A DNA stretch of 64,000 bases from an uncultured Clostridia bacterium (GCA_947623945.1 CANQHU010000001.1:102585-166584); one strand, 5' to 3'; positions 1 to 54,965 are shown, numbered from the stretch's first letter. Made by a program: numbers and translations. The notes: a model not told the origin generated them from the sequence alone.

Positions 1-1
1 T

Positions 2-1075
2 TTGGCCCGAAATTATGTCAACGCCGAAGATAAGGACGCTGCGGTCGTGTGGCAGCAGGTAGCCGACGCTTTGGAAAATATCAAGGAACGGAGTAAAACA
101 ACGAAATATGGTACGGTGTTAAGCGCAGACGAACGCAAAACCTTTGCCAATTTGCTGGCAACGGCGCTCACCTTACAGGAAACCTATCATATTACTTCCG
201 GGCAGATTGCCAAACAAAATGAAGACCTACAGCTTTACTTGGACTTAGAGGCCATTTTATCTAATGCGTATGAACATCCAAATACACAGGAGTTGATAGA
301 TATTACGAATCGGTTATATACCGTAAACCTGCAATACGGGGCGCCGGTTGACGATTTGTATTTTAAACGATTGCGGAATGTAGCAAAGGATTATAAAGCC
401 CTGTCCCAGTTTTTGAAAAAGGAATTTCCCAAGCTGGGAACCTATCAGGACGGCGTATTGACGATTGGAGAAGAGGTTGATGAAGAGACCACCAAGGAAG
501 TGCTTGCTGCGATTGACAAGGGAAACTTAAAAGCCTTTCCCTTTCTTACACAATTGCAGACTTGGTTGACTGGCAGCGACTGGGAAAAAGCGTTGCATCA
601 CAATGAGATTGTCAAGGAGTTTCAACAGTGGAAAGAGGCAGAACACAATCTGTTAGCCGTGCAAAAATCCCAATATATCAAAGCAGATACCATTCTCACT
701 TTAAAAGACGCCACCGACGCCGGATTTACCATTGACGCTCCGGAAAAGGAGGGCTATCAAATCAAGCCGGAGAGCCCAGTTGCCATGCTGATTTACGAAA
801 ATGTTGTGGTGGGGCCTGAGCAGTATATCCGTTATGGCGCGGAAGTTACGGCCGTGATTGAAGAGCCGGAATACGAAGAACTGCCGACCGAAGAAGTATT
901 GGAGGGAGAGGAAACAACCGGTACGACGGAATTGGAAGATGCCGTTTTGCCACCAGTTGTTGACCCGACCACACAAGAGGAATGGGAACCCAATGAAGAG
1001 GAAGAAGAGGAAACCATTCCCGAAGAGGAAGAAGAAATCATAGACGGTGAGGAAGATATCCCACCAGAAGAATAA
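2..1075 (+). CDS. hypothetical protein, 5' partial at window edge, with poly-Glu acidic C-terminal tail
   Basis: Open frame runs from the window start. It ends EEEEEETIPEEEEEIIDGEEDIPPEE. No recognisable catalytic motif. Confidence 0.6.
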   Translation: MARNYVNAEDKDAAVVWQQVADALENIKERSKTTKYGTVLSADERKTFANLLATALTLQETYHITSGQIAKQNEDLQLYLDLEAILSNAYEHPNTQELIDITNRLYTVNLQYGAPVDDLYFKRLRNVAKDYKALSQFLKKEFPKLGTYQDGVLTIGEEVDEETTKEVLAAIDKGNLKAFPFLTQLQTWLTGSDWEKALHHNEIVKEFQQWKEAEHNLLAVQKSQYIKADTILTLKDATDAGFTIDAPEKEGYQIKPESPVAMLIYENVVVGPEQYIRYGAEVTAVIEEPEYEELPTEEVLEGEETTGTTELEDAVLPPVVDPTTQEEWEPNEEEEEETIPEEEEEIIDGEEDIPPEE

Positions 1076-1088
1076 AGGAGGAATAGAT

Positions 1089-3290
1089 ATGAATATTGTC
1101 AAACGAAATGGAAAAGAAGTGCCTTACAATGGTGAACGCATTTTAAATGCCGTGCGAAAGGCCAACGCCGAAGTATCGGAAAGCGAAGCATTGTTAGAGT
1201 CCCAGATTCAGGTCATTGAAGAAAAGGTTTGGATTGCCTTATCCAAATTGAATCGGGCTGCCAATGTGGAAGAGATACAGGATATGGTGATTAAAGAGAT
1301 TATGCGGCAGCAGGCATATCGTCTGGCGCAGGTTTACACGGAATATCGGTTTCGGCAGGCGCTCCGTCGGCAAAAGAATACAACTGATGATTCGATTCTG
1401 TCCATCATTGAATGTGAGAATGAGGACATTCATCAGGAAAACAGTAACAAGAATTCCGTCATTGAATCCACACAGCGGGATTATATTGCTGGAGAGACCT
1501 CAAAGGATTTGACTTGGCGGGTATTACTGCCACCGGATATTGTGGAGGCGCATCGAGAGGGTATTATCCATTTCCATGATTCCGATTACTTTTTACAGAC
1601 CATTCATAATTGTTCCCTTATCAATCTGGAAGATATGCTTCAAAACGGAACAGTCATTTCCGGTGTGATGATTACGCCGCCAAAGAGTTTTGCAACAGCC
1701 TGCAATGTGGCAACACAGATTATTGCACAGGTAGCCAGCAACCAGTATGGCGGCCAGACCTTCCATTTGGGACATCTGGTACCCTATGTGGATGCGTCCC
1801 GGAAAAAGATAAAGAAGAGTGTCAAGCAGGAGGCAGAGACTGCCGGTATCACCTATACCAAAGAACAGATAAATCAGATTGTGAATTCCCGGTTGACCAA
1901 AGAGATAACGGCAGGCATTCAGACCATTCAGTATCAATTAGTCACCTTAATGACGACCAACGGACAGACGCCGTTTGTCTCTATGTATATCAATTTAGAG
2001 GATTGCAAGCCCGGAAAAGAGCGGGACGATATGGCTTTGTTGATTGAAGAGGTATTAAATCAGCGGATTAAGGGACTGCAAAATCCAGACGGTGTTTGGA
2101 TTACCCCAGCCTTTCCAAAAATTTTATATGTGTTGGACGAAGAGAATGTGAAACCGGATTCGCCGTATTTTTATTTGACGGAACTGGCTGCCCGTTGTAC
2201 GGCAAAGCGAATGGTGCCGGATTATATCAGCGCCAAAATCATGCGAAAGGTCAAAGAGGGTGATGTTTACGGTTGTATGGGCTGTCGCAGCTTTTTGACG
2301 CCCGACCGATTTTCGGAAACCAAGGGCAATCTATCCAATGCCGGAAACTATCAGCCCGGTAAACACATCTACTGGGGCCGGTTTAATCAGGGCGTGGTCA
2401 CCTTAAATCTAGTGGACATTGCTTGTTCTTCCAAGAAAGATAAGAATAAGTTTTGGGAGATTTTGGACGAGCGGTTAGAACTTTGCCATCGGGCACTTCG
2501 CTGTCGTCATGAACGGCTGCTTGGAACTAAATCCGATGTGGCGCCGATTTTATGGCAGTACGGAGCTTTGGCCAGATTACAACCCGGAGCACCAATTGAC
2601 CGTTTGTTGTATGACGGATACAGCACTATTTCTTTAGGTTATGCCGGACTATATGAAATGTGTTACTATATGACTGGAAAATCCCATACCGACGATGAGG
2701 GTAAACGATTCGCCCTTCAGGTCATGCAGAAGATGAACGACGCGTGTTCAAAATGGAAAGACGAAGAAAACATTGACTATTCCATCTACGGAACCCCGTT
2801 GGAATCTACGACCTATCGGTTTGCAAAGTGTTTGCAAAAACGCTTTGGTTCCATTCCCGGCGTGACCGACCATAATTATATTACCAATAGCTACCATGTG
2901 TGTGTTAGAGAGGAGATTGACGCGTTCACAAAGTTAAAATTTGAGTCTGAGTTTCAGGCATTGTCTCCGGGCGGAGCCATTTCCTATGTGGAAGTCCCGA
3001 ATATGCAGCAAAACATTCCGGCTGTCATTGCTTTAATCCAGTATATTTATGATAACATCATGTATGCCGAATTAAATACCAAGAGTGATTACTGCCAAGT
3101 ATGCGGCTATGATGGCGAAATCCTTATTAAAGAGGATGAAAATCAGAAGTTAATCTGGGAGTGCCCGCAATGCGGAAATAGAGACCAGACGAAGATGAAT
3201 GTGGCCCGTCGGACTTGCGGATATATTGGAACCCAGTTTTGGAATCAGGGCCGCACGCAGGAAATCAGAGACCGGGTATTACACCTGTAA
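1089..3290 (+). CDS. nrdD: anaerobic ribonucleoside-triphosphate reductase (class III, glycyl radical)
   Basis: ATP-cone-like N-terminus (IVKRNGKEVPYNGERILNAV). C-terminal Zn ribbon (CQVCGYDGE...CPQCGN) and glycyl-radical motif RRTCGYIG. AAAGGAGG RBS lies 8 nt upstream of the ATG at 1089; the longer ORF from 1047 lacks an RBS. Confidence 0.9.
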   Translation: MNIVKRNGKEVPYNGERILNAVRKANAEVSESEALLESQIQVIEEKVWIALSKLNRAANVEEIQDMVIKEIMRQQAYRLAQVYTEYRFRQALRRQKNTTDDSILSIIECENEDIHQENSNKNSVIESTQRDYIAGETSKDLTWRVLLPPDIVEAHREGIIHFHDSDYFLQTIHNCSLINLEDMLQNGTVISGVMITPPKSFATACNVATQIIAQVASNQYGGQTFHLGHLVPYVDASRKKIKKSVKQEAETAGITYTKEQINQIVNSRLTKEITAGIQTIQYQLVTLMTTNGQTPFVSMYINLEDCKPGKERDDMALLIEEVLNQRIKGLQNPDGVWITPAFPKILYVLDEENVKPDSPYFYLTELAARCTAKRMVPDYISAKIMRKVKEGDVYGCMGCRSFLTPDRFSETKGNLSNAGNYQPGKHIYWGRFNQGVVTLNLVDIACSSKKDKNKFWEILDERLELCHRALRCRHERLLGTKSDVAPILWQYGALARLQPGAPIDRLLYDGYSTISLGYAGLYEMCYYMTGKSHTDDEGKRFALQVMQKMNDACSKWKDEENIDYSIYGTPLESTTYRFAKCLQKRFGSIPGVTDHNYITNSYHVCVREEIDAFTKLKFESEFQALSPGGAISYVEVPNMQQNIPAVIALIQYIYDNIMYAELNTKSDYCQVCGYDGEILIKEDENQKLIWECPQCGNRDQTKMNVARRTCGYIGTQFWNQGRTQEIRDRVLHL

Positions 3291-3368
3291 GACGGTCTTT
3301 ACAAGGGTGGTTTTCTTTGGTAAAATAAAGAAGAATGAGGCAAAAGGCTAAATGAAGGAGCGCGAGAT

Positions 3369-3881
3369 ATGAAATTTTTGGTAAAATTTTTTAGTATATT
3401 TGTAACGACAATTACGATTTTTGTCTTTTTATTAATTGGTGCGTTTACAATTCCCAGATTATTTCACATTAATCCTTATGTCGTGCGTTCTGCCTCTATG
3501 GAACCGGCGCTGCCTACCGGCAGTTTAGTTTATGTCAATGCCAATGATACAGAGGTTACGGTGGGTGACATCATTACCTTCGGACTTTCCACCGGAAAGG
3601 AATCTGGAGTGTATGTCACGCACCGTGTTTACCAGATAGATACAGCTCGAAATATGATACAGACCAAGGGAGATAAAAATGAGGAACCCGACGGTTTTAT
3701 CGACGCTTCCGCCGTAGCCGGAACCGTGGTGTTCCACATTCCCGGAGTTGGCTTTGCCTTAGAGGGTTTACAGGAACGGGGCGGCTTTGTTATTATTGCC
3801 GTTTCCGTTTGTTTATTAAATGGACTGGTTGTACTGGTTCATTGTCTGGATAGAATGAATACACCAGCGTCAGCACAATAG
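3369..3881 (+). CDS. sipW: SipW/ER-type signal peptidase I (S26B)
   Basis: N-terminal TM segment. Ser box SASMEP, His box VTHRV, TKGDKNEEPD box and a C-terminal TM segment. Sits immediately upstream of proteins with SipW-class signal peptides. Confidence 0.8.
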   Translation: MKFLVKFFSIFVTTITIFVFLLIGAFTIPRLFHINPYVVRSASMEPALPTGSLVYVNANDTEVTVGDIITFGLSTGKESGVYVTHRVYQIDTARNMIQTKGDKNEEPDGFIDASAVAGTVVFHIPGVGFALEGLQERGGFVIIAVSVCLLNGLVVLVHCLDRMNTPASAQ

Positions 3882-4036
3882 CCACTGGCTATTTGATATA
3901 AAAAAGGGCATATCCCTGATGAGGAGGAAAGGAGGACAAAAACCATTTTCCAAAACCGAAAAGACCAAAGTAACGAAAATATAAGAAAATATAAGAAAGG
4001 AGAGTGCCTACCGGTGCTGATAGGCATAAAATTAAG

Positions 4037-5098
4037 ATGAAGAAAAAAATGAAAATCACGAAACGAACTGCAATGTCCTTGGGTATTTGCGGATTAATTG
4101 CTATCATGGGCATTACAGGGACTATCGCATATTTGACCGACAAGGCGGGTGCGACAAATAAGTTTACTTTTGGTGAAGTGAAAGTGGAGCTCCTCGAGCC
4201 GGATTGGGATACGACCGATACCGACGGCGACGGAATTCCGGATATGAGTGAGTTTGTGGTACCGAATCAGCCAGTACCCAAATCTGTAGAAGGACACAAT
4301 GTCGGTATTAACGACGCAGTGGTATTCATTAAGTTGACCGTTCCGGTGCATAAAGTTACCAGAGTAGCTGACAACGGAACCGCAGAGCGAAAGGAAAACA
4401 ATTATCTGGATGCCAAGATGCAGGAGTTGTTCTACTTCCAGCAGAAAGAAGACACCATCAATTGTGAGAATAATCATTTTGCAGATACTTGGATTAATCT
4501 GCCGGAAGAGGAAATGGGATATGAGGGTGCAGGCGGTTCGACGCCGTACTTGGATTTGACGAATACCAAGGTGTACACCGATTCCATTCGTACTTATGTC
4601 TTTGGTTTTCATCGTCGGATACCAAAAGATGAATATACCACCAAGTTATTCGAGAAGGTACAGATTAAGAACATCATTGAAAATGAAGTAGACCCTGCCG
4701 ATGTACAGGATATTAAAGTCGAATTATATTCGATTCAGGCAGATTGTATCGTGGACGAAAATGGCGAGATTGATACTAGCGGAGAATTAGACCATGATAC
4801 CTTAAAAGAGATTTATGATATTTATATGACGCAGAATCCACGGTATAAGAATGAGACGGAAGATGATGATATGATTTCTACCGAGCCGGAAGAGGCGATT
4901 AACACAAAGACCAAGGTAGAAAAGATAACCAAAAAGCCGGCTTCCAACACAAAGATAGAAATCACAGAGTCTTCTGAGACAGAAAGCACAACAGAGAACA
5001 ACGACCTTGGTCCAGCTATTATAAAGGATGAAAATGGATATTATCATTCGTTTGACCAAAATGGGAAAGAAACAATATGGAAAGCAGATGAAGACTAA
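4037..5098 (+). CDS. TasA/camelysin (peptidase M73)-family secreted protein with SipW-class signal peptide
   Basis: N-terminus KKKMKITKRTAMSLGICGLIAIMGITGTIAYLTDKAGATNKFTFGEVKV matches the AYLTD..N.F.G signature of TasA/CalY. Contains a DTDGDGIPD calcium-binding-like repeat. Start is ambiguous (GTG 4004, ATG 4037 or ATG 4049). Confidence 0.7.
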   Translation: MKKKMKITKRTAMSLGICGLIAIMGITGTIAYLTDKAGATNKFTFGEVKVELLEPDWDTTDTDGDGIPDMSEFVVPNQPVPKSVEGHNVGINDAVVFIKLTVPVHKVTRVADNGTAERKENNYLDAKMQELFYFQQKEDTINCENNHFADTWINLPEEEMGYEGAGGSTPYLDLTNTKVYTDSIRTYVFGFHRRIPKDEYTTKLFEKVQIKNIIENEVDPADVQDIKVELYSIQADCIVDENGEIDTSGELDHDTLKEIYDIYMTQNPRYKNETEDDDMISTEPEEAINTKTKVEKITKKPASNTKIEITESSETESTTENNDLGPAIIKDENGYYHSFDQNGKETIWKADED

Positions 5099-5120
5099 TC
5101 AGTGAGAAAGGAGTTAGACT

Positions 5121-6320
5121 ATGAAAAAACAGAGACTAAAATGTGGAATTCTCACTTGTCTGACTGTCCTGCTTTGTTTCCCAACCACTGTAATGGCGAA
5201 AAAGTCTGCCATGGTAACAAACAACGGTTCCATTGGAGCAGTTGATATTCAATTAAATTATACGGTGGAAGGTAATGCTGCCGCCGTGCTGCCAAGTCAG
5301 AATATTGGCTTGCATACTTCTGTTACAAATGTGGCAGAGCCGTCTTGGATACGAATGAAAGTACAGTATCCGATATATGATGGAGAGATTTTGGAGCGAT
5401 TGACCGAGGAACATATGACGCCATTAGACGATAGTCTGCTTACGATTGCAGACGGAGCGTGGAAGAAGATTGGTCCGTATTACTATTTGACCACACCGGT
5501 CGAAAGTGGAGCTGTCATTCCTTTTACGGAGGCCATTCGGATTCCAGCAGATTGGGATAATCGGGTGATTAAAACGCAGTTTGGCGTTTGTATTTCCGCA
5601 GAAGCCATTCAGGAAAAGAATTTTACACCGGATTTTGAGTCAGAAGACCCTTGGTTCGGCGCCGTAATTGAGGCATACGATTCCACGGATTATATTCATA
5701 AAGAGGCTGGAAACGAACGGTTTTCAGTGACCTATGAAGGTGGTTCGGAGGGAATGATTGCCACGGGAAAAGACTTTTTCTCTAATTGGGAAACCTTAAT
5801 GCCGGGCGATACCGTGACCGGGGAGGCCCTGATTCAGAACAATATGGATATTCCGGTCAACATCTATTTTCGCATTCAGTCGGAAGATGATAAGACCAAC
5901 AAGATATTGGACAAACTGCATTTGGTAGTCAAGAATGGAAAAAAGGTTATCTTTGACGGACCGCTTAGTAAGAATTTAGACGAAATCTTATTAAAGCAGT
6001 ATCAGCCAAAGAAATCGTCTAAATTGACTTATACTTTAACGGTTCCGGCGTCACTTACTAATGCATTTGCAGAAAATAAGTTTAAAAGTGTTTGGACTTT
6101 CCGGGCAGAGGAAGTGATAACTCCGGAAAAAGAAGCAAATCCAAAAACTCCGGCCAATCCGAAAACACCGTCGAAGTCCAATCCAAAGACGCCGACGGAA
6201 ATTATTAAAACCGGCAACGAAATGACACTATATCACTTCATTGTCATTGGCATTTGTCTGGTACTTGCCATTGGAACCGGTATTGGCTATGTCAAAACGA
6301 AAAGGGGGCGGAAGATATGA
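5121..6320 (+). CDS. secreted surface protein with NPKTP repeats and C-terminal sorting-signal-like anchor
   Basis: Sec signal peptide (..TVMA-KK). NPKTP x3 linker, then IIKTG followed by a hydrophobic stretch and a KTKRGRKI tail. GAAAGGAG RBS. Confidence 0.7.
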   Translation: MKKQRLKCGILTCLTVLLCFPTTVMAKKSAMVTNNGSIGAVDIQLNYTVEGNAAAVLPSQNIGLHTSVTNVAEPSWIRMKVQYPIYDGEILERLTEEHMTPLDDSLLTIADGAWKKIGPYYYLTTPVESGAVIPFTEAIRIPADWDNRVIKTQFGVCISAEAIQEKNFTPDFESEDPWFGAVIEAYDSTDYIHKEAGNERFSVTYEGGSEGMIATGKDFFSNWETLMPGDTVTGEALIQNNMDIPVNIYFRIQSEDDKTNKILDKLHLVVKNGKKVIFDGPLSKNLDEILLKQYQPKKSSKLTYTLTVPASLTNAFAENKFKSVWTFRAEEVITPEKEANPKTPANPKTPSKSNPKTPTEIIKTGNEMTLYHFIVIGICLVLAIGTGIGYVKTKRGRKI

Positions 6321-6973
6321 AATTAAATCCAGTGACAGAAGTTCCCAAGAAACGGAAATTTCGCATGGTTTATAGTCTCCCGCTGCTCCTTGCCGCTTTG
6401 ATAATCAGCGTCACGGGGACTTTGGCATACTTAACTTATAAGACGCCAATGGAGCATAACAAATTTACCTTTGGTAATGTAGATGTCAAGATAATTGAGG
6501 AATATAATCCCCCACGGTCCATGGACCCCGGAAACAACGACTATGACAAAAAGGTATCCATTCAAAATACCGGAACTATAGATTGTTTTGTCCGTGTCGA
6601 TGTCATGTGGTCCTCCGTGGATGTACAAAAGATTTCGTACTTATCAACCGACAACCGGGCGTCGTGGATTCCGGCCACCAGCTTTACCACAAATACTCCA
6701 AATAAGTGGGTGTATCAGGCAACAGGAGAGTTGACCGGCTATTATTATTACACGGAGCCTTTGGCACCCGGAGAAACATCGGAGCCATTGTTTACCGATG
6801 TGCGAACCGTTTTTTCCGCAAAAACATCAGATGTAACTAACATTGTGAATCAGACCGAGCGGGATTATGATATTTATATTCATACAGAGGCGATTCAGCA
6901 AATGGCATTAGACGGTTCCGGAAAACATAAAGACTATCAGGTTGCTTGGAAAGATTTCCTTGCAAAGAAATAA
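6317..6973 (+). CDS. TasA/camelysin-family protein with SipW-class signal peptide
   Basis: ATGA overlap with the upstream stop. N-terminus ..LLAALIISVTGTLAYLTYKTPMEHNKFTFGNVDVKI carries the same signature as the 4037 gene. Confidence 0.7.
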   Translation: MKLNPVTEVPKKRKFRMVYSLPLLLAALIISVTGTLAYLTYKTPMEHNKFTFGNVDVKIIEEYNPPRSMDPGNNDYDKKVSIQNTGTIDCFVRVDVMWSSVDVQKISYLSTDNRASWIPATSFTTNTPNKWVYQATGELTGYYYYTEPLAPGETSEPLFTDVRTVFSAKTSDVTNIVNQTERDYDIYIHTEAIQQMALDGSGKHKDYQVAWKDFLAKK

Positions 6974-6990
6974 CATGGAGGTGAAACATC

Positions 6991-9900
6991 GTGAGAACAC
7001 ATAGAAAAGTGGCTGCTTTCTTGTTAGCGGCAGTTATGTTGGTGTCTTCGATGTCCGTACAGGCCGCCCCGCCCATTGTGGGGCAGCCTTCCGTGACAGC
7101 AAAAGAGACACCGAATGTGGTCGGAAAAACCACAACCTCTGAGGTAAAAGAAACCCCAAATGTGGTTGGTAAAACAACAGAGACAAAAGAGACGCCGAAT
7201 GTAGTCGGAAAGGCGACAACAGAGGCAAAAGAGACGCCGAATGTGGTCACAACAGAGGCATCGACTGCCGTGACGACGGAAACAACGACGGAAATAACAA
7301 CAGAAGCTGCAATAGAAGAGACAGAGGGACGAGAGCCGGAAGAGGAAGAAGTTACAAAGACATTATTAATGGAAGCGCCCGAAAGAGACAAAATTCCAAA
7401 AAACGCTAATATTATAGATAATATTGACGATATGTATTTAATATCATTTGACACACAAAAAGAAGCTATTAAAGCGTATGAAGAATATGGCAGTGGCAAA
7501 GGTAGTTATAAGGCTTCTATTAACACATCTTTTCGGGTGGCAACAGAAATATCGAAAACAAAGGATACACCGAATGACATCTTAGACGAAAATGTTTTTT
7601 CTAATATAGATACAGAACCAAAATCGTCGATTGTTCGTATAGGAAATACGGAAACAATTGCTTTAATTGATAGTGGCGTTCCTCAAAATCAATCGAATGT
7701 GGAAATGACTTCTGTCTTATCCAATGATGAGGGAGTGGATGGAAATGGACATGGAACGGTAATGTTAGAGACTATTCGCAACATCAATCCCAATGTAAAA
7801 GTATTATCTATCAAAGCCATAGATGATACCGGATTTGGAGACGCTGCTTCTGTTTATGCAGCAATTGAATATGCCATTGAGCGAAAAGTGTCTATTATCA
7901 ATTTATCTTTGAGTGGAGACGCAACAGAAGGAAATTTGGCTATCGAATCAGCAATTCAAGACGCTGTTAATGCGGGAATCCGTGTTATTGGAGCCGCAGG
8001 CAATAATGGAAATGATGCAAAGTATTATGTTCCCGGCAGCATCCGAAATGTAATTGTGTTGGGTGCGTGTGACAGTCTGGGAAATCGCATTTTCACATCT
8101 AATTATGGACCTTCTGTTGATTATTTTGGAGAGGCATCTTCTACATCTGAGGCAACGGCCAAGTTTTCTGCAACATTGGCATTGAATGATGGAGATATTG
8201 GAAAAACAGAATTAAAATTTTTTAAAAATGAAGAGAATTTTACCAACAATGCGGCTCCTATGGTAGAAGGTACTGATGGATTGGAACCCGCCGGAACGGT
8301 CATAGACTCTGCCACGGAAGCGTTTAAAGGTCCCGGAAATGTACGAAAGATGGACGGTGACAGTTCATCTAATGGTAAACCCATCTATGTATTTCATGAT
8401 TGGATGGCTAAAAGCTATTTTGATTTTGTAGATGCAAACAAGAGCCATCCTATCATTTTGATTCAGGGTGATTATAATGAAGAAGAGGATGCTGCACCCA
8501 TATATCGCTCGGACAAGAACGGAGATTGGAGTGATAAGGCTGATGAGTGTATGGACGGGTCGAAGACTGTTCAAAAACAGACATTAAAAGGCGGTCCAAG
8601 TGATGATTATAAATTACTGCGTTGTACAGGTAGCGTTGATAATGATGCGGTGCAAATCGTATATAATCAGGGTGATGCGCCAGAACATACCAGCGGTGTT
8701 GGGTTTTCATCAATGGGAACAGTATTTTATATCCAGCGTCCAGAGGTAAATAAAAATGATACAGATACATCAATTGATTTGAATGAATATTTTGTATTGC
8801 CTTGGGTTGCCGCAAATACAGCGACTGGAGAACGAACACATTTAATTATAAATATAACCCATTATGAATGGCACGCGGCCCATGTGACGGGCGATAAAGG
8901 GGAACAAAAGTCAGTCGAAACTGTAACAAACGCTGGAAAAGGAATTACAAAATTGCCTTTATTTGCAGTTACACTAAACGGTGAGTTTCATTTCTATGGA
9001 GGTGTCAATCGTGCTGAATATTGTGAAAGTCATAGTAATTACGGTGATGTAAATGCTTATGTAAAGATTACTTATAACCTGATAATCCCGGATGTACCAG
9101 AAGACTCGGCTGTTATGTATGCGTTTCGTGATATTGACCAAGAGATGGAAAGTCTTACCATAACTAATCCAATGTCTGATTTGAGTGTGGGTTCAAAAGC
9201 ATTCGACCATGGAAGTACAGTTGAAGGAAAATCCTATAAATCTTCAAACCATGGGTCTTTAGTCATTACGAAAGACGGAACCGGAGCGAATGCAACATTT
9301 AAAATAGACAATGGAAAAACGACAGGGGATGATGAATCTAGTTCTAATGATGATGAATCGGAAACAGGAACAGGTTTTTCCCTATTTGTAGATGCTCCAA
9401 AAACAAAGATTACATGGACTGGACATAATTGTGGAACACAAATGGGTGAGCAAACAAAGCCAATTGTTGAAAAGGTTCAAACACTGTATCAAAGACCAGA
9501 TGGAGCATATGGAAAGGATTATAACATAACTTATGCTAATGACCAGTATTATAAAAACGATAACGTAAATATGAGAGCAAAAGTAAAGGCATGGTATCTG
9601 TGTCCATGTTCAAAATTTAATGGTTATACAGAACGGTACCAACCTTGCACATATGATGACTATGATGGTGATGACTATGATGTCATAGATGACTATCTTA
9701 CTGCTGAGGACCTGCGTGATAATGACTTTCTTTTGAGTGCACAATCACCATATAAGATATATCGTACAGATTTAGACACAGGAAATCTAAACAGTACTTA
9801 TTATACGAATCAATACACCAATCCGACACTATCTCCTCCTGCTAAGACTTTACCTACAATTTCAGCACCATGGGATGTAAATGCGCATCCAACGAATCAA

Positions 9901-11580
9901 AGTAGTGGTGCAAAAGCAAATCGTGCATGGTATGATAATTTAACAGGTAGTGAAAATCCAAAACATTATACAGATGGTGAAGTTGGAAAGGACAGATGCT
10001 TTTTATATACTGTATATGTGCCTCGAATGGACTATACTTATACTTTTAATGAAAATTTGCCTGCATCGGCTGCTACCCGAGGGCAACACGCGACAAATAT
10101 GCCGGATAATATTACGAGATTAGCGGAAAATACCGTCGGGTCACCAAATCGAACACCAAAATTGCACGGATATGTATTTTTAGGCTGGAGTTATTCCCCA
10201 AGTGGCCCTGTCAATTTTAACTCCGCGGAAATAATGTACTCTAACAAGACCATATATGCTATCTGGCGCCCAATGGAATACTATGTGATTTATGACGCCA
10301 ATGGTGGAACGAATTTTGACCATTATAACGGAGAGTATACACAAAATGTAACAAGTGGAACGACCGGTGGTTCTCCACACGCGTGCTCCGCAGGCGGAAC
10401 CGGACGAGAGCAGAAATTTCAGTACGATACACCGGGCACTATCGCCGCTTGTGGCTATCAGCGGGCAGGATTTAATTTCATTTGTTGGAATACGACACCG
10501 GCCGGTAATGATGACCACCAGAATACGCTTAACTATACGACTTTTAAGAGAAGTGATTTTGTTGTTCCCGCAGGGGAGCAAGTGTATTATGGGCCGCCAA
10601 GTTATAGTAACTTACCAGACCGATTGGGGTTGGAACCGGTTGACCAGATGCATATTACTGTTTATGCACAATGGAATAAAGTACCGGGAACAGAAACATT
10701 AACCGTGGTTTCAGAGGAAACTGGAAACCCAGTTCCAAATGTGACGGTCACCTTACACTATGGACAGGCAGGAACACAGAATTCTCATACGATTGGAGAC
10801 GATTCTTCATATAATGTGGCGAATTGGTCGCCAAATAGCTCAGGTGGCGTCTATCATGGTTGGGATAACCCGACGAATGCCGGAAATTATACCCTTACGA
10901 CCAATGCGGCCGGGCAGATTACCGTGGGCGATTTACTCTGGTATGATTATCAGTGGCAGAATGTTTCGGTGCCTGAGGGTTATCTGGACTTTGGTTGGGA
11001 CCCATACAATCGAAGTACACTAGAGGCAACACTTGGAAAAACAGCCGGAAAGGTCAATTTGACCGACAGCTATGATACCATTAATCCGACAGCTCGAAAT
11101 GGACGAACTTTCTTTATTCATGGAACGCATTTGTCGGAATTGAATACCAGAGTGCTTTATATGAAGCACGTCAAGCTCACCTTAAACAGCACGATACGGG
11201 ATATTTACAATGACCCCGGAAAGGGATTGATTAAGGGAGAAAACCCACCCGCCTTTATGTACCATATTTCCGGTACGGATGTGGCTGGTGTAGCACATGA
11301 ATACAATGTTATGGTGCAGACAAACAAAGACTTGACGCCTATCAGCGGACAGAATTTGGTACCGGATATGTTTGCCGGAACCTATCAGATTACGCAGATA
11401 CCGGTATCCCGTTATGAGCCATTGACGGCGATTAATAACAGCAACACCGTACCAAATGGGATTAATGCAACAGCGAATATCATTGTACCAGACAGTGCCG
11501 AGGCCACATTCCCATACCAGATTAAACAATACGGTGGATTTGGAGCAGTTACTTCTGCAACCAATCATCAAGACCACTAA
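6991..11580 (+). CDS. giant secreted multidomain protein: subtilisin-like S8 peptidase domain plus Listeria-Bacteroides-type repeats plus SpaA/Cna-B-like domain (putative adhesin/protease)
   Basis: GTG start after a GGAGGTGA RBS, with a signal peptide (..SVQA-AP). S8 triad-like boxes IALIDSGV, GNGHGTVM, IINLSLSG and ASSTSEATA. GY.F.GW repeats (HGYVFLGWSYSP; AGFNFICWNTTPAG). Prealbumin-like TLTVVSEETGNPVPNVTVTL...YTLTTNAAGQITVGDL. Confidence 0.8.
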   Translation: MRTHRKVAAFLLAAVMLVSSMSVQAAPPIVGQPSVTAKETPNVVGKTTTSEVKETPNVVGKTTETKETPNVVGKATTEAKETPNVVTTEASTAVTTETTTEITTEAAIEETEGREPEEEEVTKTLLMEAPERDKIPKNANIIDNIDDMYLISFDTQKEAIKAYEEYGSGKGSYKASINTSFRVATEISKTKDTPNDILDENVFSNIDTEPKSSIVRIGNTETIALIDSGVPQNQSNVEMTSVLSNDEGVDGNGHGTVMLETIRNINPNVKVLSIKAIDDTGFGDAASVYAAIEYAIERKVSIINLSLSGDATEGNLAIESAIQDAVNAGIRVIGAAGNNGNDAKYYVPGSIRNVIVLGACDSLGNRIFTSNYGPSVDYFGEASSTSEATAKFSATLALNDGDIGKTELKFFKNEENFTNNAAPMVEGTDGLEPAGTVIDSATEAFKGPGNVRKMDGDSSSNGKPIYVFHDWMAKSYFDFVDANKSHPIILIQGDYNEEEDAAPIYRSDKNGDWSDKADECMDGSKTVQKQTLKGGPSDDYKLLRCTGSVDNDAVQIVYNQGDAPEHTSGVGFSSMGTVFYIQRPEVNKNDTDTSIDLNEYFVLPWVAANTATGERTHLIINITHYEWHAAHVTGDKGEQKSVETVTNAGKGITKLPLFAVTLNGEFHFYGGVNRAEYCESHSNYGDVNAYVKITYNLIIPDVPEDSAVMYAFRDIDQEMESLTITNPMSDLSVGSKAFDHGSTVEGKSYKSSNHGSLVITKDGTGANATFKIDNGKTTGDDESSSNDDESETGTGFSLFVDAPKTKITWTGHNCGTQMGEQTKPIVEKVQTLYQRPDGAYGKDYNITYANDQYYKNDNVNMRAKVKAWYLCPCSKFNGYTERYQPCTYDDYDGDDYDVIDDYLTAEDLRDNDFLLSAQSPYKIYRTDLDTGNLNSTYYTNQYTNPTLSPPAKTLPTISAPWDVNAHPTNQSSGAKANRAWYDNLTGSENPKHYTDGEVGKDRCFLYTVYVPRMDYTYTFNENLPASAATRGQHATNMPDNITRLAENTVGSPNRTPKLHGYVFLGWSYSPSGPVNFNSAEIMYSNKTIYAIWRPMEYYVIYDANGGTNFDHYNGEYTQNVTSGTTGGSPHACSAGGTGREQKFQYDTPGTIAACGYQRAGFNFICWNTTPAGNDDHQNTLNYTTFKRSDFVVPAGEQVYYGPPSYSNLPDRLGLEPVDQMHITVYAQWNKVPGTETLTVVSEETGNPVPNVTVTLHYGQAGTQNSHTIGDDSSYNVANWSPNSSGGVYHGWDNPTNAGNYTLTTNAAGQITVGDLLWYDYQWQNVSVPEGYLDFGWDPYNRSTLEATLGKTAGKVNLTDSYDTINPTARNGRTFFIHGTHLSELNTRVLYMKHVKLTLNSTIRDIYNDPGKGLIKGENPPAFMYHISGTDVAGVAHEYNVMVQTNKDLTPISGQNLVPDMFAGTYQITQIPVSRYEPLTAINNSNTVPNGINATANIIVPDSAEATFPYQIKQYGGFGAVTSATNHQDH
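7102..7248 (+). repeat. in-frame tandem coding repeat (KETPNVV[G/V]K.TT x4)
   Basis: Four imperfect copies of AAAGAGAC[A/G]CCGAATGT[G/A]GT.. sit directly after the signal peptide of the giant protein. Confidence 0.85.
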
Positions 11581-11620
11581 GAGGAGTGATGGATATGGGC
11601 GGAGATTAATCTCACATAAA

Positions 11621-11652
11621 GGGGCGCATCGTAAGATGTGTCCCTTTTTTTT
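11621..11652 (+). terminator. intrinsic terminator after the giant surface protein gene
   Basis: 10-bp stem GGGGCGCATC/GATGTGTCCC (with G-U pairs), GTAA loop, followed by T8. Confidence 0.75.
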
Positions 11653-11656
11653 CTTC

Positions 11657-11753
11657 TAAGAAAAATTCGTTTTTTTTTGCCCTTGCCCTACGGCAAGGGC
11701 AATTCTTCGGGGACTAAGTCCCCGAACCCCTTTATATCTACGAATTTTTCTTA
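11657..11753 (+). promoter_or_regulatory. structured intergenic element, copy A (outer 14-bp stem enclosing two hairpins plus a CCCC box)
   Basis: TAAGAAAAATTCGT (11657-70) pairs perfectly with ACGAATTTTTCTTA (11740-53). Inner hairpin 1 is TTGCCCTTGCC-CTAC-GGCAAGGGCAA. Inner hairpin 2 is TTCGGGGAC-TAA-GTCCCCGAA followed by CCCCTTTA. The same architecture occurs at 24693 and 49571. Confidence 0.7.
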
Positions 11754-11831
11754 TCATTTTTTTTATTTTTTTATTCAGGTAAAAGTAATGAATTTTCAGG
11801 GAGTTTATTTTTTTTGGGGAAAGGAGACGCT

Positions 11832-12701
11832 ATGACGACAATTGACACGCTGATTGCCATCAAGAAGCAATCGAATACCGATGATATTATTCGATTTTTA
11901 GATGAGCTAATCACTTATGAGAAACTATCCAAACTTCCGGCTTTTCAGGATTTGGAGCATTCAGAAGCGGCGAAAAAGAAACTGCCGCTCTTATCTGCCG
12001 TATATCAAAATGAATTCTATGCGCTGGCGATTGCAGAAATGGCAGAATCCATTTTGGCCTATTTGGAAGAAGACATTCCACCGGTGTTACACGACCGGTT
12101 ACAGGCATTGACGCCAAAACAGGTTCATAAGTTAAATATTATGATGAAAGGCGTTTTGGAGGTCAGTTATCACCCGTTAGAGGAATATGTGCCGGACATC
12201 ATGGCCGAGGATGTCATTGCGGTGTTTGAAAGTGAGCGCCCCAATGAGGAGACGGAGGAAAATGCCTTGCTCATTTTGGTCAAGCCGGAACAGTCAAGGA
12301 TTTATTCCATTTATCAGGGACATTACAATCCCGGAGCAAAAGAGCGGAAATCACCGGCCTTTGATAAAATCAAACCTTATGTGCATACGGAATCGGACGG
12401 CTCAACATTGACTATTTCTCATTATTCCTTACTGGGAAACAATGGCTATGTGTTTGCAATTTACACGAAAGCAGGCACGGACTATCAGGTATTGATGCCA
12501 TATCACGATACGATATGGTTGTTGAATTCCGGGATTTGTGAGCAGGTCGTGAAATTGGATTTAACCCAGTGTAATGAGTTAGCACTGGCCAAGACGAAGG
12601 TTGCTGAGTTTGCGGCGACAATCGCAAAATTTATCAGAGAGGGGAGGGAGGCGGATGCGGCACTTGAAGAAAGTTCCGGACGCAGCAATTCGGGAGATTG
12701 A
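11832..12701 (+). CDS. hypothetical protein, first gene of the E2/SNF2/HIRAN/E1/JAB cassette
   Basis: GAAAGGAGA RBS lies 7 nt before the ATG at 11832. No motif recognised. Its 3' end overlaps the next gene by 47 nt. Confidence 0.65.
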   Translation: MTTIDTLIAIKKQSNTDDIIRFLDELITYEKLSKLPAFQDLEHSEAAKKKLPLLSAVYQNEFYALAIAEMAESILAYLEEDIPPVLHDRLQALTPKQVHKLNIMMKGVLEVSYHPLEEYVPDIMAEDVIAVFESERPNEETEENALLILVKPEQSRIYSIYQGHYNPGAKERKSPAFDKIKPYVHTESDGSTLTISHYSLLGNNGYVFAIYTKAGTDYQVLMPYHDTIWLLNSGICEQVVKLDLTQCNELALAKTKVAEFAATIAKFIREGREADAALEESSGRSNSGD

Positions 12702-13314
12702 AACGGCACACGCCAGAGCGATACGGGCGGTTATGGAAAATTATCATGCCCTTTGTAATCTGCCGGTACGGCCGGCGAAAATGTCACTGTATCGAAACGG
12801 CGACGCCACTTTGGAGACAACAGTGGTTCCGGCAACCAGTGTATTTTTATCGCCAAACAATCCCTTTTTGGGAGACGGAATATTGAATCGGGACGCTCTC
12901 ACCTATTTTGTAAAAGGGACGGACATTGCATTCCCCCTTGGTCATGTGTATCGTGGCAGTGGGAATTTGTGTCTGGGCAGCATCTTTGTTCCGTCACAGG
13001 TATCCATTTATAATCCGGCACAGCCGTTGGAAACCTTATTTCTACACAACGATAGAAACTTAAGTCACGGAAATGCCGAATTAACGGTCAACAAAGACCA
13101 ATGGATGAATATCAAAGAGCTTTTATACGACAGGGGCTATACCTTGTCTCCTGAAGTGGAGAATGAATTTCAGCCAAACGAATCTTTATTGCGGCGTGAT
13201 ACTATCTGGAAGCTGGGAGCAGAGCTGTTACAGCAGTATCCATTTATGGAAGTGATGCGCACAATGACACTGATTTACGATATTATCTTTAATAAAAACG
13301 GAGGGAAAAAATGA
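12655..13314 (+). CDS. prokaryotic E2/UBC-like protein (putative)
   Basis: GGAGGGAGG RBS before the ATG at 12655. The motif FPLGHVYRGSGNLCLGSIF resembles the UBC active-site HPN..G.ICL box with a candidate catalytic Cys. Size and context match E2-like members of ThiF/JAB cassettes. Confidence 0.5.
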   Translation: MRHLKKVPDAAIREIETAHARAIRAVMENYHALCNLPVRPAKMSLYRNGDATLETTVVPATSVFLSPNNPFLGDGILNRDALTYFVKGTDIAFPLGHVYRGSGNLCLGSIFVPSQVSIYNPAQPLETLFLHNDRNLSHGNAELTVNKDQWMNIKELLYDRGYTLSPEVENEFQPNESLLRRDTIWKLGAELLQQYPFMEVMRTMTLIYDIIFNKNGGKK

Positions 13315-14492
13315 AAAAGTATGTATCTCTGCTGGAGACAGCGGCCAATATTAGAAAAATACTGGGAAAGGTATCTTACCGAAAAGTATTACAATCACCG
13401 GTATTAGAGCCACCACATAGACCAGCGATTGCTCATCCTTATTATTATAATAGTGGGGAAATAATGAATGACGAAGATTTGGACCCTCGCCCCTATCTGT
13501 TGAGCGAGAGTGAAACTGACCCGTCTGTCCGAAAGCTGATGTTGCGAAAGCCCCCCTATTTGGCACATCGTTATCCTTACTTTTGTGTGGAAGAGGACGG
13601 AATGCAGGTATCCCAGTTGTCTATCAGCAATTTGGTGTTTGATGTACCTCATATTGCAGAATTAGAGTGGTTAAAGAAGACAAATCCATATCAATTCCCG
13701 GAAAACGAGCGGTTATGGGAATATTTGGAATTGAGTTCGTATGTGTTGTTATTTACCTATCGGATGTTCCTAACTCTATTTGACGCCACTGGTATCACGG
13801 AGTTGGATAACCCAGTGACGATTCAGGACACCGTTGTGGCAAACACGCCTTTGGATTTTCTCACAGAAACGCATTGGTGGAAAGTCCATGAATGGGATAC
13901 GGAAGAAAATCCGGATATTATCTGGAGTGAAATGAAGAAACAATATCAGGAACATTTTACCTTTCATGCAACTTATCCGGTTTTGTATAAAAATATGGTC
14001 AATTCATGGGTGTTCGCCCCTGCATCATCTGCTGATATCTGGGCACTGATTAATCGTTCGATTGATGAAAATAATGGTGCAACACAGGCAGACCGAAATC
14101 CATTGGCACAGGCAAACATCTGGTTGGCGATTTTCGGGCAGTTGGAAATCGAAGACACACAATGTAAGAACTTGTCATGGACAGATTATCAGAGTTATAA
14201 GTTAGCTTTTCCACGCTATATCACTGCACAGTTACGCGCTGTATTAAGGGATATTGAACCGAATAGTAATTTTGCTTATGGTTATTTCAATCATACCGGC
14301 TATCAGTTCCGGCAAGGTGGAGAAGACAATATTGTAATGGGTGTGATGCGTCGGTGGTATGATGATAAGTTAAAAGACTATGCGAAACAAAACCCGGTAG
14401 ATTTGGAGGTCAATGATTTAACCAATATTCATGATGAGTTGCCAAATGTCCGTGTTGTATTAAATGCATCAAAATTATCATGGACAAGTTAG
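13311..14492 (+). CDS. hypothetical protein (cassette member)
   Basis: ATGA overlap with the upstream gene. 393 aa with no recognised motif. Confidence 0.6.
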   Translation: MKKYVSLLETAANIRKILGKVSYRKVLQSPVLEPPHRPAIAHPYYYNSGEIMNDEDLDPRPYLLSESETDPSVRKLMLRKPPYLAHRYPYFCVEEDGMQVSQLSISNLVFDVPHIAELEWLKKTNPYQFPENERLWEYLELSSYVLLFTYRMFLTLFDATGITELDNPVTIQDTVVANTPLDFLTETHWWKVHEWDTEENPDIIWSEMKKQYQEHFTFHATYPVLYKNMVNSWVFAPASSADIWALINRSIDENNGATQADRNPLAQANIWLAIFGQLEIEDTQCKNLSWTDYQSYKLAFPRYITAQLRAVLRDIEPNSNFAYGYFNHTGYQFRQGGEDNIVMGVMRRWYDDKLKDYAKQNPVDLEVNDLTNIHDELPNVRVVLNASKLSWTS

Positions 14493-14503
14493 GGAGGTAG
14501 AAT

Positions 14504-15463
14504 ATGAACGCAGTGAGAATTTTAGAGTTAGATGTCAGGCGTCCGACTTGGACGAAAGTAGCCGATGATTTGGGTGGTTTTATCGACGAGATGATACGGG
14601 AAATCCGTTCGATTCCCTTTTATAAAACCAATGACGGTTATCGGTATGCAGGGCATTTATTAAAAGACCCGGTGACCGGGAAAAACTGTTATACCTTTCT
14701 CTTTGGCGAGGAAGCCATTGAGGAAGAGGACGGTGAGCTTTCTGTTGCTATTCGAGATATTTATTTGTCTGCGATTGACAAATTAAATGCACTTGTCATT
14801 TCGGAAGAGGATTTTGAGACTTGGACAACCTTTCATAAGGAAAGTCCGAGCATTGTTTCTTATCATCGAATATTGGAATCCATTGGAGAAGATATCTTGT
14901 TAAGTTATCTGTTTGGACTGCCGACCAAATGGCAGCCGGAAGAGACGCCGATTTCTAATCCACAGGAAATTTGGGACAAGCAATATCCCAATGATGTGAC
15001 CGATATGATGATAAAAGAATGGGACGATTCTCAGCGGAAAAATCAGCCAATGAATAGTCGAATGGTAATGCGGCAGTCCATTCGGAGAAACAGCGAATTG
15101 ACTCAGGAGCTATTGTTTTTGGACAAATCGGCAACCTGTACACTCAAGAAAACCGTCGTACAGCGTTCCGGAGATGTCGTATTGAATCATAACAATCCGT
15201 TTGCAGATGTGTCTATCAAAGAACAGCACTTTGTTTATGGCTCGGTTATGGGTCAATTTGAAGCGTTGGGACTTACCACAAGCCATACGGTGACCAAGCA
15301 GGCAAAAGATTTGCAAAGGTCATATTTTGTGTTACAGCCGGGCTTCAAGATTAAGAAAGAGAAACTCGATAATATGAAGCAGACACAGGATGTATTATTT
15401 GATGATACGATTTCAACAGAAATTGTACAGCAGGACAATAATATCTATGTGTATATCGACTAA
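14504..15463 (+). CDS. hypothetical protein (cassette member)
   Basis: AGGGAGG RBS. 319 aa with no recognised motif. Confidence 0.6.
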   Translation: MNAVRILELDVRRPTWTKVADDLGGFIDEMIREIRSIPFYKTNDGYRYAGHLLKDPVTGKNCYTFLFGEEAIEEEDGELSVAIRDIYLSAIDKLNALVISEEDFETWTTFHKESPSIVSYHRILESIGEDILLSYLFGLPTKWQPEETPISNPQEIWDKQYPNDVTDMMIKEWDDSQRKNQPMNSRMVMRQSIRRNSELTQELLFLDKSATCTLKKTVVQRSGDVVLNHNNPFADVSIKEQHFVYGSVMGQFEALGLTTSHTVTKQAKDLQRSYFVLQPGFKIKKEKLDNMKQTQDVLFDDTISTEIVQQDNNIYVYID

Positions 15464-15477
15464 TGGAGGGAAAACCC

Positions 15478-18465: not shown

Positions 18466-18509
18466 GTAATTCAACCTGTCCGTTCTTTCTCAGAAGGGAG
18501 AAAAAGAAT

Positions 18510-54413: not shown

Positions 54414-54965
54414 GTGAGCATATCAAATAATACACTCAACAATTTCATTTTACGAGGAAATCTCTACTTTGTCAACATCGTTGACGGTGGAGGAAGTAAG
54501 CAGGACGGTCTTCGTCCTTGTCTTATCGTAAGCAACAATGCCAATAACCGGCATTCCACGGTGTTAGAGGTAGTATATATCACTTCTAAGATGACCAAAG
54601 TGAAGCTGCCAACCCATGTGCCGATTTCCGGTCACGGATTGACCAAACCAAGTTTGGTATTGTGCGAACAGATTTCTACAGTAAACCGGTATCAGCTTTG
54701 CCGGTATCTTGGACATTTAACAGAAGAAGAAATGGAACCGATTGATGCCGCTTTGGGCGTGTCGATTGACTTACATAACATGGAAACTCGTTATCATGCG
54801 TTAAAGACCGAATTGGAGCAGTCGTATGTGCGAGACCTTGAAGTGTTATCTATTACACCAACGCCCAATGGGACGCTGGATATTGCGATGAAATTACCGC
54901 ATCAGGAAAAAATATATCATAAATTTGTGAAAGGAGACTTGCTAAAATGCCAACCATTGTTGTAG
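54414..54965 (+). CDS. MazF/PemK-family endoribonuclease toxin-like protein with an extra C-terminal region of about 70 aa
   Basis: RGNLYFVNI..G..QDGLRPCLIVSNNANN..VLEVVYITSK...LPTHVPIS..GLTKPSLVLCEQISTVNRYQL..YLGHLTEEEMEPIDAAL fits the PemK fold signature. GTG at 54414 lies 9 nt after AAGGAG; an alternative ATG is at 54393. Confidence 0.7.
   Translation: MSISNNTLNNFILRGNLYFVNIVDGGGSKQDGLRPCLIVSNNANNRHSTVLEVVYITSKMTKVKLPTHVPISGHGLTKPSLVLCEQISTVNRYQLCRYLGHLTEEEMEPIDAALGVSIDLHNMETRYHALKTELEQSYVRDLEVLSITPTPNGTLDIAMKLPHQEKIYHKFVKGDLLKCQPLL

Follow-up and report, generated by a model that had tools for sequence, protein, structure and literature searches.

A probable bsa-type operon for wall-anchored TasA/BsaA-family fibres on a circular plasmid of about 181.7 kb from the rabbit gut

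Organization of the operon

The window analysed here is a stretch of 64,000 nucleotides (C1:102585-166584) of the 181,781-bp contig C1, which was assembled from a rabbit-gut metagenome and is listed under an uncultured Clostridia bacterium. Five genes at window positions 3369-11580 (Table 1) encode a SipW-type signal peptidase, two TasA/BsaA-family proteins with signals of the kind cleaved by such a peptidase, a third family member with a wall-sorting signal, and a giant secreted protein with a subtilase (S8) domain. We consider it probable that they form a bsa-type operon for a wall-anchored TasA/BsaA fibre; the replicon on which they sit is a circular plasmid, about 181.7 kb in size. The first gene is called sipW here, the next three and their products are named by the first nucleotide of the gene (4037, 5121 and 6317), and the last is called the giant gene; coordinates are those of the window unless they are given on C1.

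Table 1. Predicted features of the operon, in window coordinates
Feature	Position	Strand	Basis
Promoter-like site (TTTACA, 17-nt spacer, TAAAAT, TG before -10)	3298..3326	+	Consensus scan, 10/12 positions; pattern match only
sipW: predicted SipW/ER-type signal peptidase I, 170 aa, hydrophobic spans at N- and C-terminus	3369..3881	+	TIGR02228, PF10502
4037: predicted TasA/BsaA/camelysin-family subunit A, 353 aa, SipW-type signal AYLTD	4037..5098	+	TIGR04088, PF12389 in relatives, hhalign
5121: predicted wall-anchor subunit, 399 aa, TasA-family N-terminal domain and IIKTG signal	5121..6320	+	hhalign, C-terminus
6317: predicted TasA/BsaA-family subunit B, 218 aa, SipW-type signal AYLTY	6317..6973	+	TIGR04090
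Giant gene: predicted secreted protein, 1529 aa, S8, Flg_new and SpaA-like	6991..11580	+	PF00082, subtilisin match
Predicted intrinsic terminator, 13-bp stem then T-run	11618..11647	+	Terminator scan, best match of the region

The five genes are co-directional and tightly spaced, and the stop codon of 5121 overlaps the start codon of 6317 (ATGA). The promoter-like site is the best of the region and sits within the 78-bp gap between nrdD and sipW; the terminator starts 38 nt past the stop codon of the giant gene, which alone makes up 56% of the operon. From promoter-like site to terminator, 3369-11580 reads as one transcription unit. An RNA-seq library from a different study contains 13 short contigs that match the operon at 90-100%, some of them bridging sipW and 4037 or 6317 and the giant gene. 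In a variant of about 95% identity in this library, 39 of the 40 listed differences fall at third codon positions, which supports the genes as real and coding and shows purifying selection. The same variant carries a 4-nt insertion at 4029 that would disrupt an open reading frame (ORF) begun at GTG 4004, an argument for ATG 4037 as the start codon and against GTG 4004. The library contigs leave gaps at 7515-10605, which carry no meaning because contigs of this kind are unable to show absence. The RNA matches are compatible with transcription of the operon and are no proof of it.

The SipW-type signal peptidase

The initial annotation had assigned the first product as an element-encoded endoplasmic reticulum (ER)-type signal peptidase with SMEP, THRV and GDKN boxes, and this assignment stands. 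The protein matches TIGR02228 (archaeal/ER-type signal peptidase I) at 76.1 bits (cut-off 51.85) and Peptidase_S26 (PF10502) at 33.1 bits (cut-off 22.9). When it is aligned with six SipW homologues, of which five adjoin TasA-like genes in other loci, no variation is seen at Ser43 (in SMEP), at His85 (in THR) or in the GD.N...D box. Ser43 and His85 are taken by us to be the catalytic residues, with Ser/His replacing the Ser-Lys dyad, from what is known of B. subtilis SipW. The enzyme is best classed as a SipW/ER-type peptidase and not as the Bacillus orthologue, because the Bacillus SipW equivalog NF046067 gives 61 bits, far below its cut-off of 190.

Three paralogues of the TasA/BsaA family

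Two proteins with the SipW-cognate signal had been recognized after the peptidase gene, and both carry it. The 4037 protein matches TIGR04088 (cognate_SipW signal) with 25.1 bits against a cut-off of 19 and has the motif AYLTD...ATNKFTFG, and the 6317 protein has the same motif as AYLTY...HNKFTFG. Their description as TasA/camelysin-like substrates is supported directly for the 6317 protein, which scores 62.8 bits (cut-off 60) against TIGR04090, the BsaA family of SipW-dependent biofilm matrix proteins. For the 4037 protein the description holds through its relatives: about 45 of them are found in metagenome assemblies at 59-68% identity, PF12389 (Peptidase_M73/camelysin, TasA family) is matched by 21 of the 30 that were sampled, and hhalign joins the 4037 family to the 6317 family at 99.1%. 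Among 300 sampled genomes of the class, 22 matched TIGR04090, often with two to four clustered copies, and none of these 22 scores high enough to be BsaA itself; in sampled genomes the 4037 family was matched only weakly, via its N-terminal part.

The 5121 protein had been noted as an anchored surface protein, a description that its C-terminus (see below) bears out and that missed its membership of the same family as its neighbours. Its own family counts 1012 representative clusters at E<=1e-3, and hhalign over residues ~1-170 gives 99.0% with the 6317 family and 97.5% with the 4037 family; the operon therefore encodes three TasA/BsaA-family paralogues, the third as the N-terminal domain of 5121, and not two. 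From N- to C-terminus the 5121 protein consists of a Sec-type signal, the TasA-family domain (about residues 30-170), a second domain, a stalk rich in NPKTP, the IIKTG signal, a hydrophobic span and the tail KRGRKI. The signal is of the Sec-type AxA kind, not SipW-type, and is followed by the strand motif T-N-N-G-S-I-G-A-V-D-I-Q-L.

At its C-terminus the 4037 protein has an 80-aa extension rich in Thr and Glu (residues 270-353, window 4844-5098), and all close relatives end at about 266-280 aa without it. The extension ends in a small three-stranded module, modelled with a predicted local distance difference test score (pLDDT) of up to 91, whose appearance by eye is that of one cell-wall-binding repeat. 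The extension gave no match to family profiles, and a search of C1 for other proteins sharing a C-terminal tag with it found this tail to be unique.

Structure models and the candidate isopeptide lock

AlphaFold2 models of the two SipW-signal proteins have mean pLDDT values of 74.9 (6317) and 78.8 (4037, with more than 90 across residues 40-275). In both, the signal and the donor-strand region are disordered and the remainder is a beta-sandwich. The TasA fibre structure 8aur_A is the first-ranked Foldseek match of the 6317 model (E 1.2e-3, probability 0.98), with a TM of only 0.30; VIA-align superposes this model on 8aur with Z 5.9 and a root-mean-square deviation (rmsd) of 4.4 over 137 residues. 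For the 4037 model, 8aur ranks 40th in a wide search, with Z 5.4 and an rmsd of 3.4 over 127 residues. The models are compatible with the TasA fold and do not single TasA out. Of the earlier proposal that both are TasA-fold proteins, the monomer models thus uphold the beta-sandwich, with 8aur at the top for 6317, and give no discrimination from immunoglobulin (Ig)-like domains.

Monomers of C. perfringens BsaA are locked after donor-strand exchange by an Asn35-Lys74 isopeptide bond, whose formation is catalysed by Glu56 (Kivimaki 2025 preprint, PMC11580942). Both the 4037 and the 6317 proteins keep the donor-strand motif N-x-F-x-x-G-x-V-x-V. In a 30-sequence alignment of the 4037 family, with a mean column identity of 24%, only seven columns are invariant; they include N41 (in N-K-F-T-F-G) and E54, and K82 is conserved in at least 90% of the sequences. 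N48, E61 and K78 are invariant across the 6317 family. By their pattern, N41/E54/K82 and N48/E61/K78 may hypothetically be equivalent to the lock triad of BsaA. In profile alignments the 5121 protein keeps the Asn, with Tyr47 in place of the Glu and Leu62/His63 in place of the Lys, a pattern that would fit a subunit donating but not accepting a locked strand.

Probable wall anchoring and the plasmid sortase

The C-terminus of the 5121 protein has the three parts of a sorting signal, namely IIKTG (nt 6201-6215), a 26-residue hydrophobic span (NEMTLYHFIVIGICLVLAIGTGIGYV) and the basic tail KTKRGRKI. C-termini of the 5121 family share V-x-T-G-D followed by a transmembrane span and a basic tail. 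The canonical LPXTG profile TIGR01167 does not match the 5121 protein and matches only 1 of 30 family members.

A gene for a class B sortase (TIGR03064, 162.2 bits, cut-off 153.75) lies at C1:85321-86103 (+). It adjoins the second of two genes for giant surface proteins, at C1:57100-62751 (+) and C1:86614-92121 (-), whose products of 1883 and 1835 aa end in tripartite tails with EVKTG and IVKTG, respectively. By these motifs the plasmid encodes a sortase and three putative substrates that share an [IV]KTG signal, and it is plausible that the sortase is specific for this signal. C. difficile SrtB cleaved SPKTG and PPKTG in vitro and did not cleave NVQTG (PMC4155245). The module had been called self-contained, which applies to its peptidase, its substrates and its anchor in one operon; the probable sortase is encoded about 20 kb upstream, on the same plasmid.

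The giant S8 protein

The last gene product begins with a Sec signal, five KETPNVVGKTT-like repeats, a pro-region that by eye is I9-like and a short S8 domain (nt ~7642-8190). These are followed by residues ~400-1000, which have no family match, two Flg_new repeats (nt ~10108-10674), a SpaA-like domain (nt ~10690-10995) and a conserved C-terminal domain; no sorting signal is present at the C-terminus. Scanned whole, the 1529-aa protein gave no match to Peptidase_S8 at E<=0.01. Residues 1-470 scanned alone gave 57.9 bits against PF00082 (cut-off 21.8), covering only profile positions 4-197 of 288, and subtilisin BPN' is matched at E 7e-17. All S8 alignments stop at about residue 380-395, before the Ser, and compared with subtilisin the protein lacks some 16 residues just before its degenerate Ser motif, STSEA.

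Among 5.8 billion clusters the giant protein has five relatives at E 1e-45 or better, four of which share the S8 architecture. In these four, at 33-37% identity, D227, H254 and S386 (TSEA), the presumed catalytic residues, and N338, the presumed oxyanion Asn, are conserved, with the Ser motif lying outside all profile and PDB alignments, and this conservation argues for a short protease that may be functional. Further along the protein, Flg_new reaches 24.8 bits (cut-off 27), with one exact GY.F.GW (GYVFLGW, residue 1060) and one degenerate copy (GFNFICW), and SpaA 16.4 bits (cut-off 23.1); relatives at 33-37% identity carry both PF09479 and PF17802. The initial annotation had combined S8, GY.F.GW repeats and a SpaA-like domain in this protein: the S8 part is upheld by its profile, as a partial match, and the remainder is weaker than described, with a single exact GY.F.GW and with Flg_new and SpaA below cut-off in this sequence.

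The giant protein is tied to the operon by co-encoding, and nothing links it physically to the fibre. We also considered it as a fibre subunit and dropped this idea, since no TasA-like domain was detected in it and hhalign against TasA-like families gave a probability of at most 0.3%. In 399 sampled genomes of the class, it was matched via its S8 core only, never past residue ~395, apart from one match to the Flg_new repeats. In IMG/VR, the giant family matched nothing but generic Flg_new repeats, spread over 40 viral loci that have neither a SipW nor a TasA gene.

The KETPNVVGKTT-like repeats, at window 7084-7260 (residues ~32-90), precede a linker rich in Thr and Glu. Near 7305-7323 the source sample's DNA contigs either end or diverge, a hint that the length of the repeats varies.

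Comparison with known systems

The closest known counterpart is the bsa locus of C. perfringens, where in most strains srtB lies beside sipW, bsaA, a bsaB with LPXTG, bsaB and bsaC (Obana 2020 PMC7395162; PMC11580942). BsaA forms SipW-dependent, SDS (sodium dodecyl sulfate)-stable polymers, and anchoring via the LPXTG paralogue has been proposed there, not demonstrated (PMC7395162, PMC11580942). The operon described here resembles bsa in having sipW first, then a TasA-family subunit, a paralogue with a sorting signal, a further paralogue and a large secreted protein, in having a class B sortase on the same replicon, and in conserving a donor-strand Asn together with candidate equivalents of the acceptor Glu and Lys. 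It differs in its last gene, which encodes the 1529-aa S8/Flg_new/SpaA protein in place of the 70-kDa vWA protein BsaC, in having no bsaR/bsaS regulator genes in the operon, in the sortase gene lying about 20 kb away instead of adjacent, in the signal IIKTG instead of LPXTG, and in being plasmid-borne. TasA/BsaA genes are often found beside genes for LPxTG proteins, SpaA proteins, signal peptidases and sortases, with multiple paralogues per operon (PMC11580942).

The tapA-sipW-tasA operon of B. subtilis likewise pairs a dedicated SipW-type peptidase with TasA-family substrates and an accessory anchoring protein, and its TasA fibre, 8aur, is the top Foldseek match of the 6317 model. Unlike that operon, the present one has no TapA, and anchoring would depend on the sortase signal of a TasA-domain protein; moreover, TasA itself has no Asn/Glu/Lys triad (PMC11580942), and no PDB sequence match leads from the present proteins to TasA. 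Sortase-assembled pili and PrgB of pCF10 share with the operon a wall-anchored structure and a sortase on a conjugative-type replicon, as well as Ig-like, SpaA-type domains. Unlike in those systems, there is no pilin motif or LPXTG here, subunits would be joined by strand insertion and not through transpeptidation by a sortase, and the sorting signal is found on the base protein alone. No homology to PrgB was found, and no search aimed at it was made.

Related modules were found in other assemblies. One metagenome contig has the order 4037-like, 5121-like and 6317-like at 48%, 35% and 35% identity, followed by a signal-peptide gene, and three further loci in high-GC (guanine plus cytosine), Coriobacteriia-like sequence have modules of sipW, TasA-like and 5121-like genes. 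A human-faecal scaffold (MT835485.1:43184-68227) encodes sipW, two TasA-like genes and a 5121-like anchor ending in PKTG. This scaffold is deposited as 'UNVERIFIED Bacteriophage sp.'; its neighbouring ORFs are not phage-like by eye, and the label is perhaps wrong or refers to another part.

Proposed assembly of the fibre

In the mechanism that we propose, SipW cuts the precursors of 4037 and 6317 just behind AYLT, which would free an N-terminal strand with the motif N-x-F-T-F-G-x-V-x-V. By donor-strand exchange of the kind seen in TasA and BsaA, the freed strand would enter the open beta-sandwich of the next subunit and so build a homopolymeric or heteropolymeric fibre, whose subunits may then be locked through N41/E54/K82 and N48/E61/K78 by an Asn-Lys isopeptide bond, as in BsaA. 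The 5121 protein would donate its strand to the first fibre subunit, and the class B sortase of the plasmid would link 5121 to peptidoglycan at IIKTG, between Thr and Gly, thereby tethering the fibre. The giant S8/Flg_new/SpaA protein, presumably co-expressed and secreted, occupies the position of BsaC and might serve as an adhesin or as a processing protease. The plasmid would likely benefit through aggregation or biofilm formation of its host, favouring retention and transfer. Aggregation for mating, superinfection exclusion and a colonisation benefit, the roles put forward in the initial annotation, would be candidate functions.

Several points weigh against this proposal. Polymerisation is something that we infer from family membership, and C. 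perfringens BsaB, a paralogue, only dimerises (PMC11580942), so not every family member forms fibres. The 4037 protein itself has no match to PF12389 at E<=0.01, and searches of PDB sequences with the single proteins and with three family profiles never reached TasA. Integrin calf domains, CBM3, cohesins and Gram-positive pilins tie with TasA in the structure comparison at Z 5.4-5.9; the family assignment rests on sequence profiles. The spacing from Asn to Glu in the candidate triads is 13 residues, compared with 21 in BsaA. As regards anchoring, IIKTG is not a proven class B motif, and the sortase gene is about 20 kb from the operon.

Some of these points would also suit another arrangement, in which the TasA-family proteins form a surface or matrix coat of monomers or dimers, like BsaB or camelysin, 5121 is a plain wall-anchored protein and the S8 protease is the main product of the operon. 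Besides the generic fold matches, it draws on C. perfringens BsaB, which forms dimers only and is without the N-E-K triad (PMC11580942), and on the giant gene, which takes up 56% of the operon and encodes a conserved catalytic tetrad. We consider such a coat unlikely, in view of the N-x-F-x-x-G-x-V-x-V motif and the conserved Glu and Lys positions that both SipW-signal proteins keep, and of a layout tied to filament assembly (PMC11580942), in which a SipW gene is accompanied by several paralogues and an anchored one.

The circular replicon

The first 77 bp of contig C1 are identical to its last 77 bp (C1:1-77 = C1:181705-181781); an exact overlap of this sort is what circular molecules usually leave in an assembly, and it points to a circular replicon of about 181.7 kb. 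C1 was searched for tRNA genes and has none, and the HK97-capsid and Terminase_6N families gave zero matches on C1. PF02534, for VirD4/TraG-type coupling proteins, matches a 1286-aa ORF on C1 with 33.6 and 27.1 bits (cut-off 20.1), and a MobL relaxase domain lies inside the window (52.1 bits). The operon is flanked by the replicon's own genes on both sides, nrdD before it and a ubiquitin-like/SNF2 cassette after it. That the module is borne by the element, as had been suggested at the outset, and is not flanking host DNA is thus confirmed by the circular closure and by the VirD4-type and MobL matches.

C1 is deposited with a metagenome-assembled genome (MAG) from which it differs in composition. 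It has 44% GC and 37 CGG/CCG per kb, against 28% GC and about 3.6 per kb in the other 115 contigs of the MAG, and its tetranucleotide correlation to the MAG is 0.70, against 0.99 for the remaining contigs; the plasmid is therefore probably mis-binned, and its true host would not be the MAG. Here CGG encodes arginine in the ordinary way, with 18 such codons in the intact nrdD and 16 across the five operon genes. GC content along the 64-kb window ranges from 39 to 48%.

An origin of the cluster in a host chromosome or in a chimeric assembly, outside any mobile element, seems to us extremely improbable, even with the contig binned in a bacterial MAG and with no close relatives of the element in phage, plasmid and IMG/VR collections. 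In those collections, megablast of window 1-20000 against phages and plasmids gave zero matches, the 4037 family and two genes from the cassette downstream found no relatives in IMG/VR, and tblastn of the 5121 protein against PLSDB gave zero matches. The exact 77-bp closure, the lack of tRNA genes, the steady GC content of the window and the compositional mismatch to the MAG all speak against such an origin, as do the replicon genes on both sides of the operon and a single DNA contig of the source sample that spans 3300-11426 with even depth.

A different relation between operon and plasmid would be that the operon encodes a dedicated mating adhesin for a putative type IV secretion system of the plasmid, a counterpart of enterococcal aggregation substance that would bind recipient cells and be expressed along with the transfer genes. 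In its favour are the VirD4-type and MobL matches, the sortase that the plasmid encodes and its two further giant [IV]KTG surface proteins, of which one is encoded inside the putative type IV secretion region, and in B. subtilis matrix production raises the transfer of ICEBs1 (PMC6158512). The operon nevertheless lies about 35 kb or more from the putative secretion cluster, between nrdD and the ubiquitin-like/SNF2 cassette. It has its own promoter-like site and terminator, and like modules are common on apparent chromosomes and across very many gut genomes; the operon would therefore be acquired cargo rather than a transfer component, and we regard a dedicated mating adhesin as decidedly unlikely. 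It is at best a long shot that a covalently locked TasA-type fibre, made with the plasmid's own peptidase and own [IV]KTG sortase, serves as a contact device in conjugation and is trimmed or released by the S8 protease; if so, the plasmid would encode a fibre for mating whose structural class is not known in that role.

Significance of a probable bsa-type operon on a plasmid

TasA/BsaA-type fibres are known as chromosomal biofilm determinants. The type of system proposed here is a known one and common in gut Clostridia; what is unusual is its carriage on a plasmid together with its own sortase and an S8-bearing giant partner, which has few relatives and is uncharacterised. With a complete operon and a sortase on a large plasmid of conjugative type, fibre-based aggregation could spread horizontally as a package, which could feed back on plasmid transfer and on colonisation of the gut host. 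For C. perfringens it has been proposed, so far speculatively, that the fibre is held at the wall by a TasA-family paralogue bearing a sorting signal, and the present locus would add a clear example. Since the 5121 protein keeps the donor-strand Asn without the acceptor Glu and Lys, the direction of assembly becomes testable.

Other genes of the replicon

Besides nrdD, C1 encodes a UvrD-type helicase, a RecD2-type helicase and an NAD-dependent DNA ligase. The ligase and the RecD2-type helicase are encoded in the window at 49978-51939 and 54947-57103 (+), and this set of DNA-metabolism genes is unusually rich for a plasmid. At 61277-63979 (-), a 900-aa ORF matches the RNA polymerase Rpb2 domain 6 weakly (25.1 bits, cut-off 23.4) and may encode a divergent RNA polymerase beta-like subunit on the plasmid.

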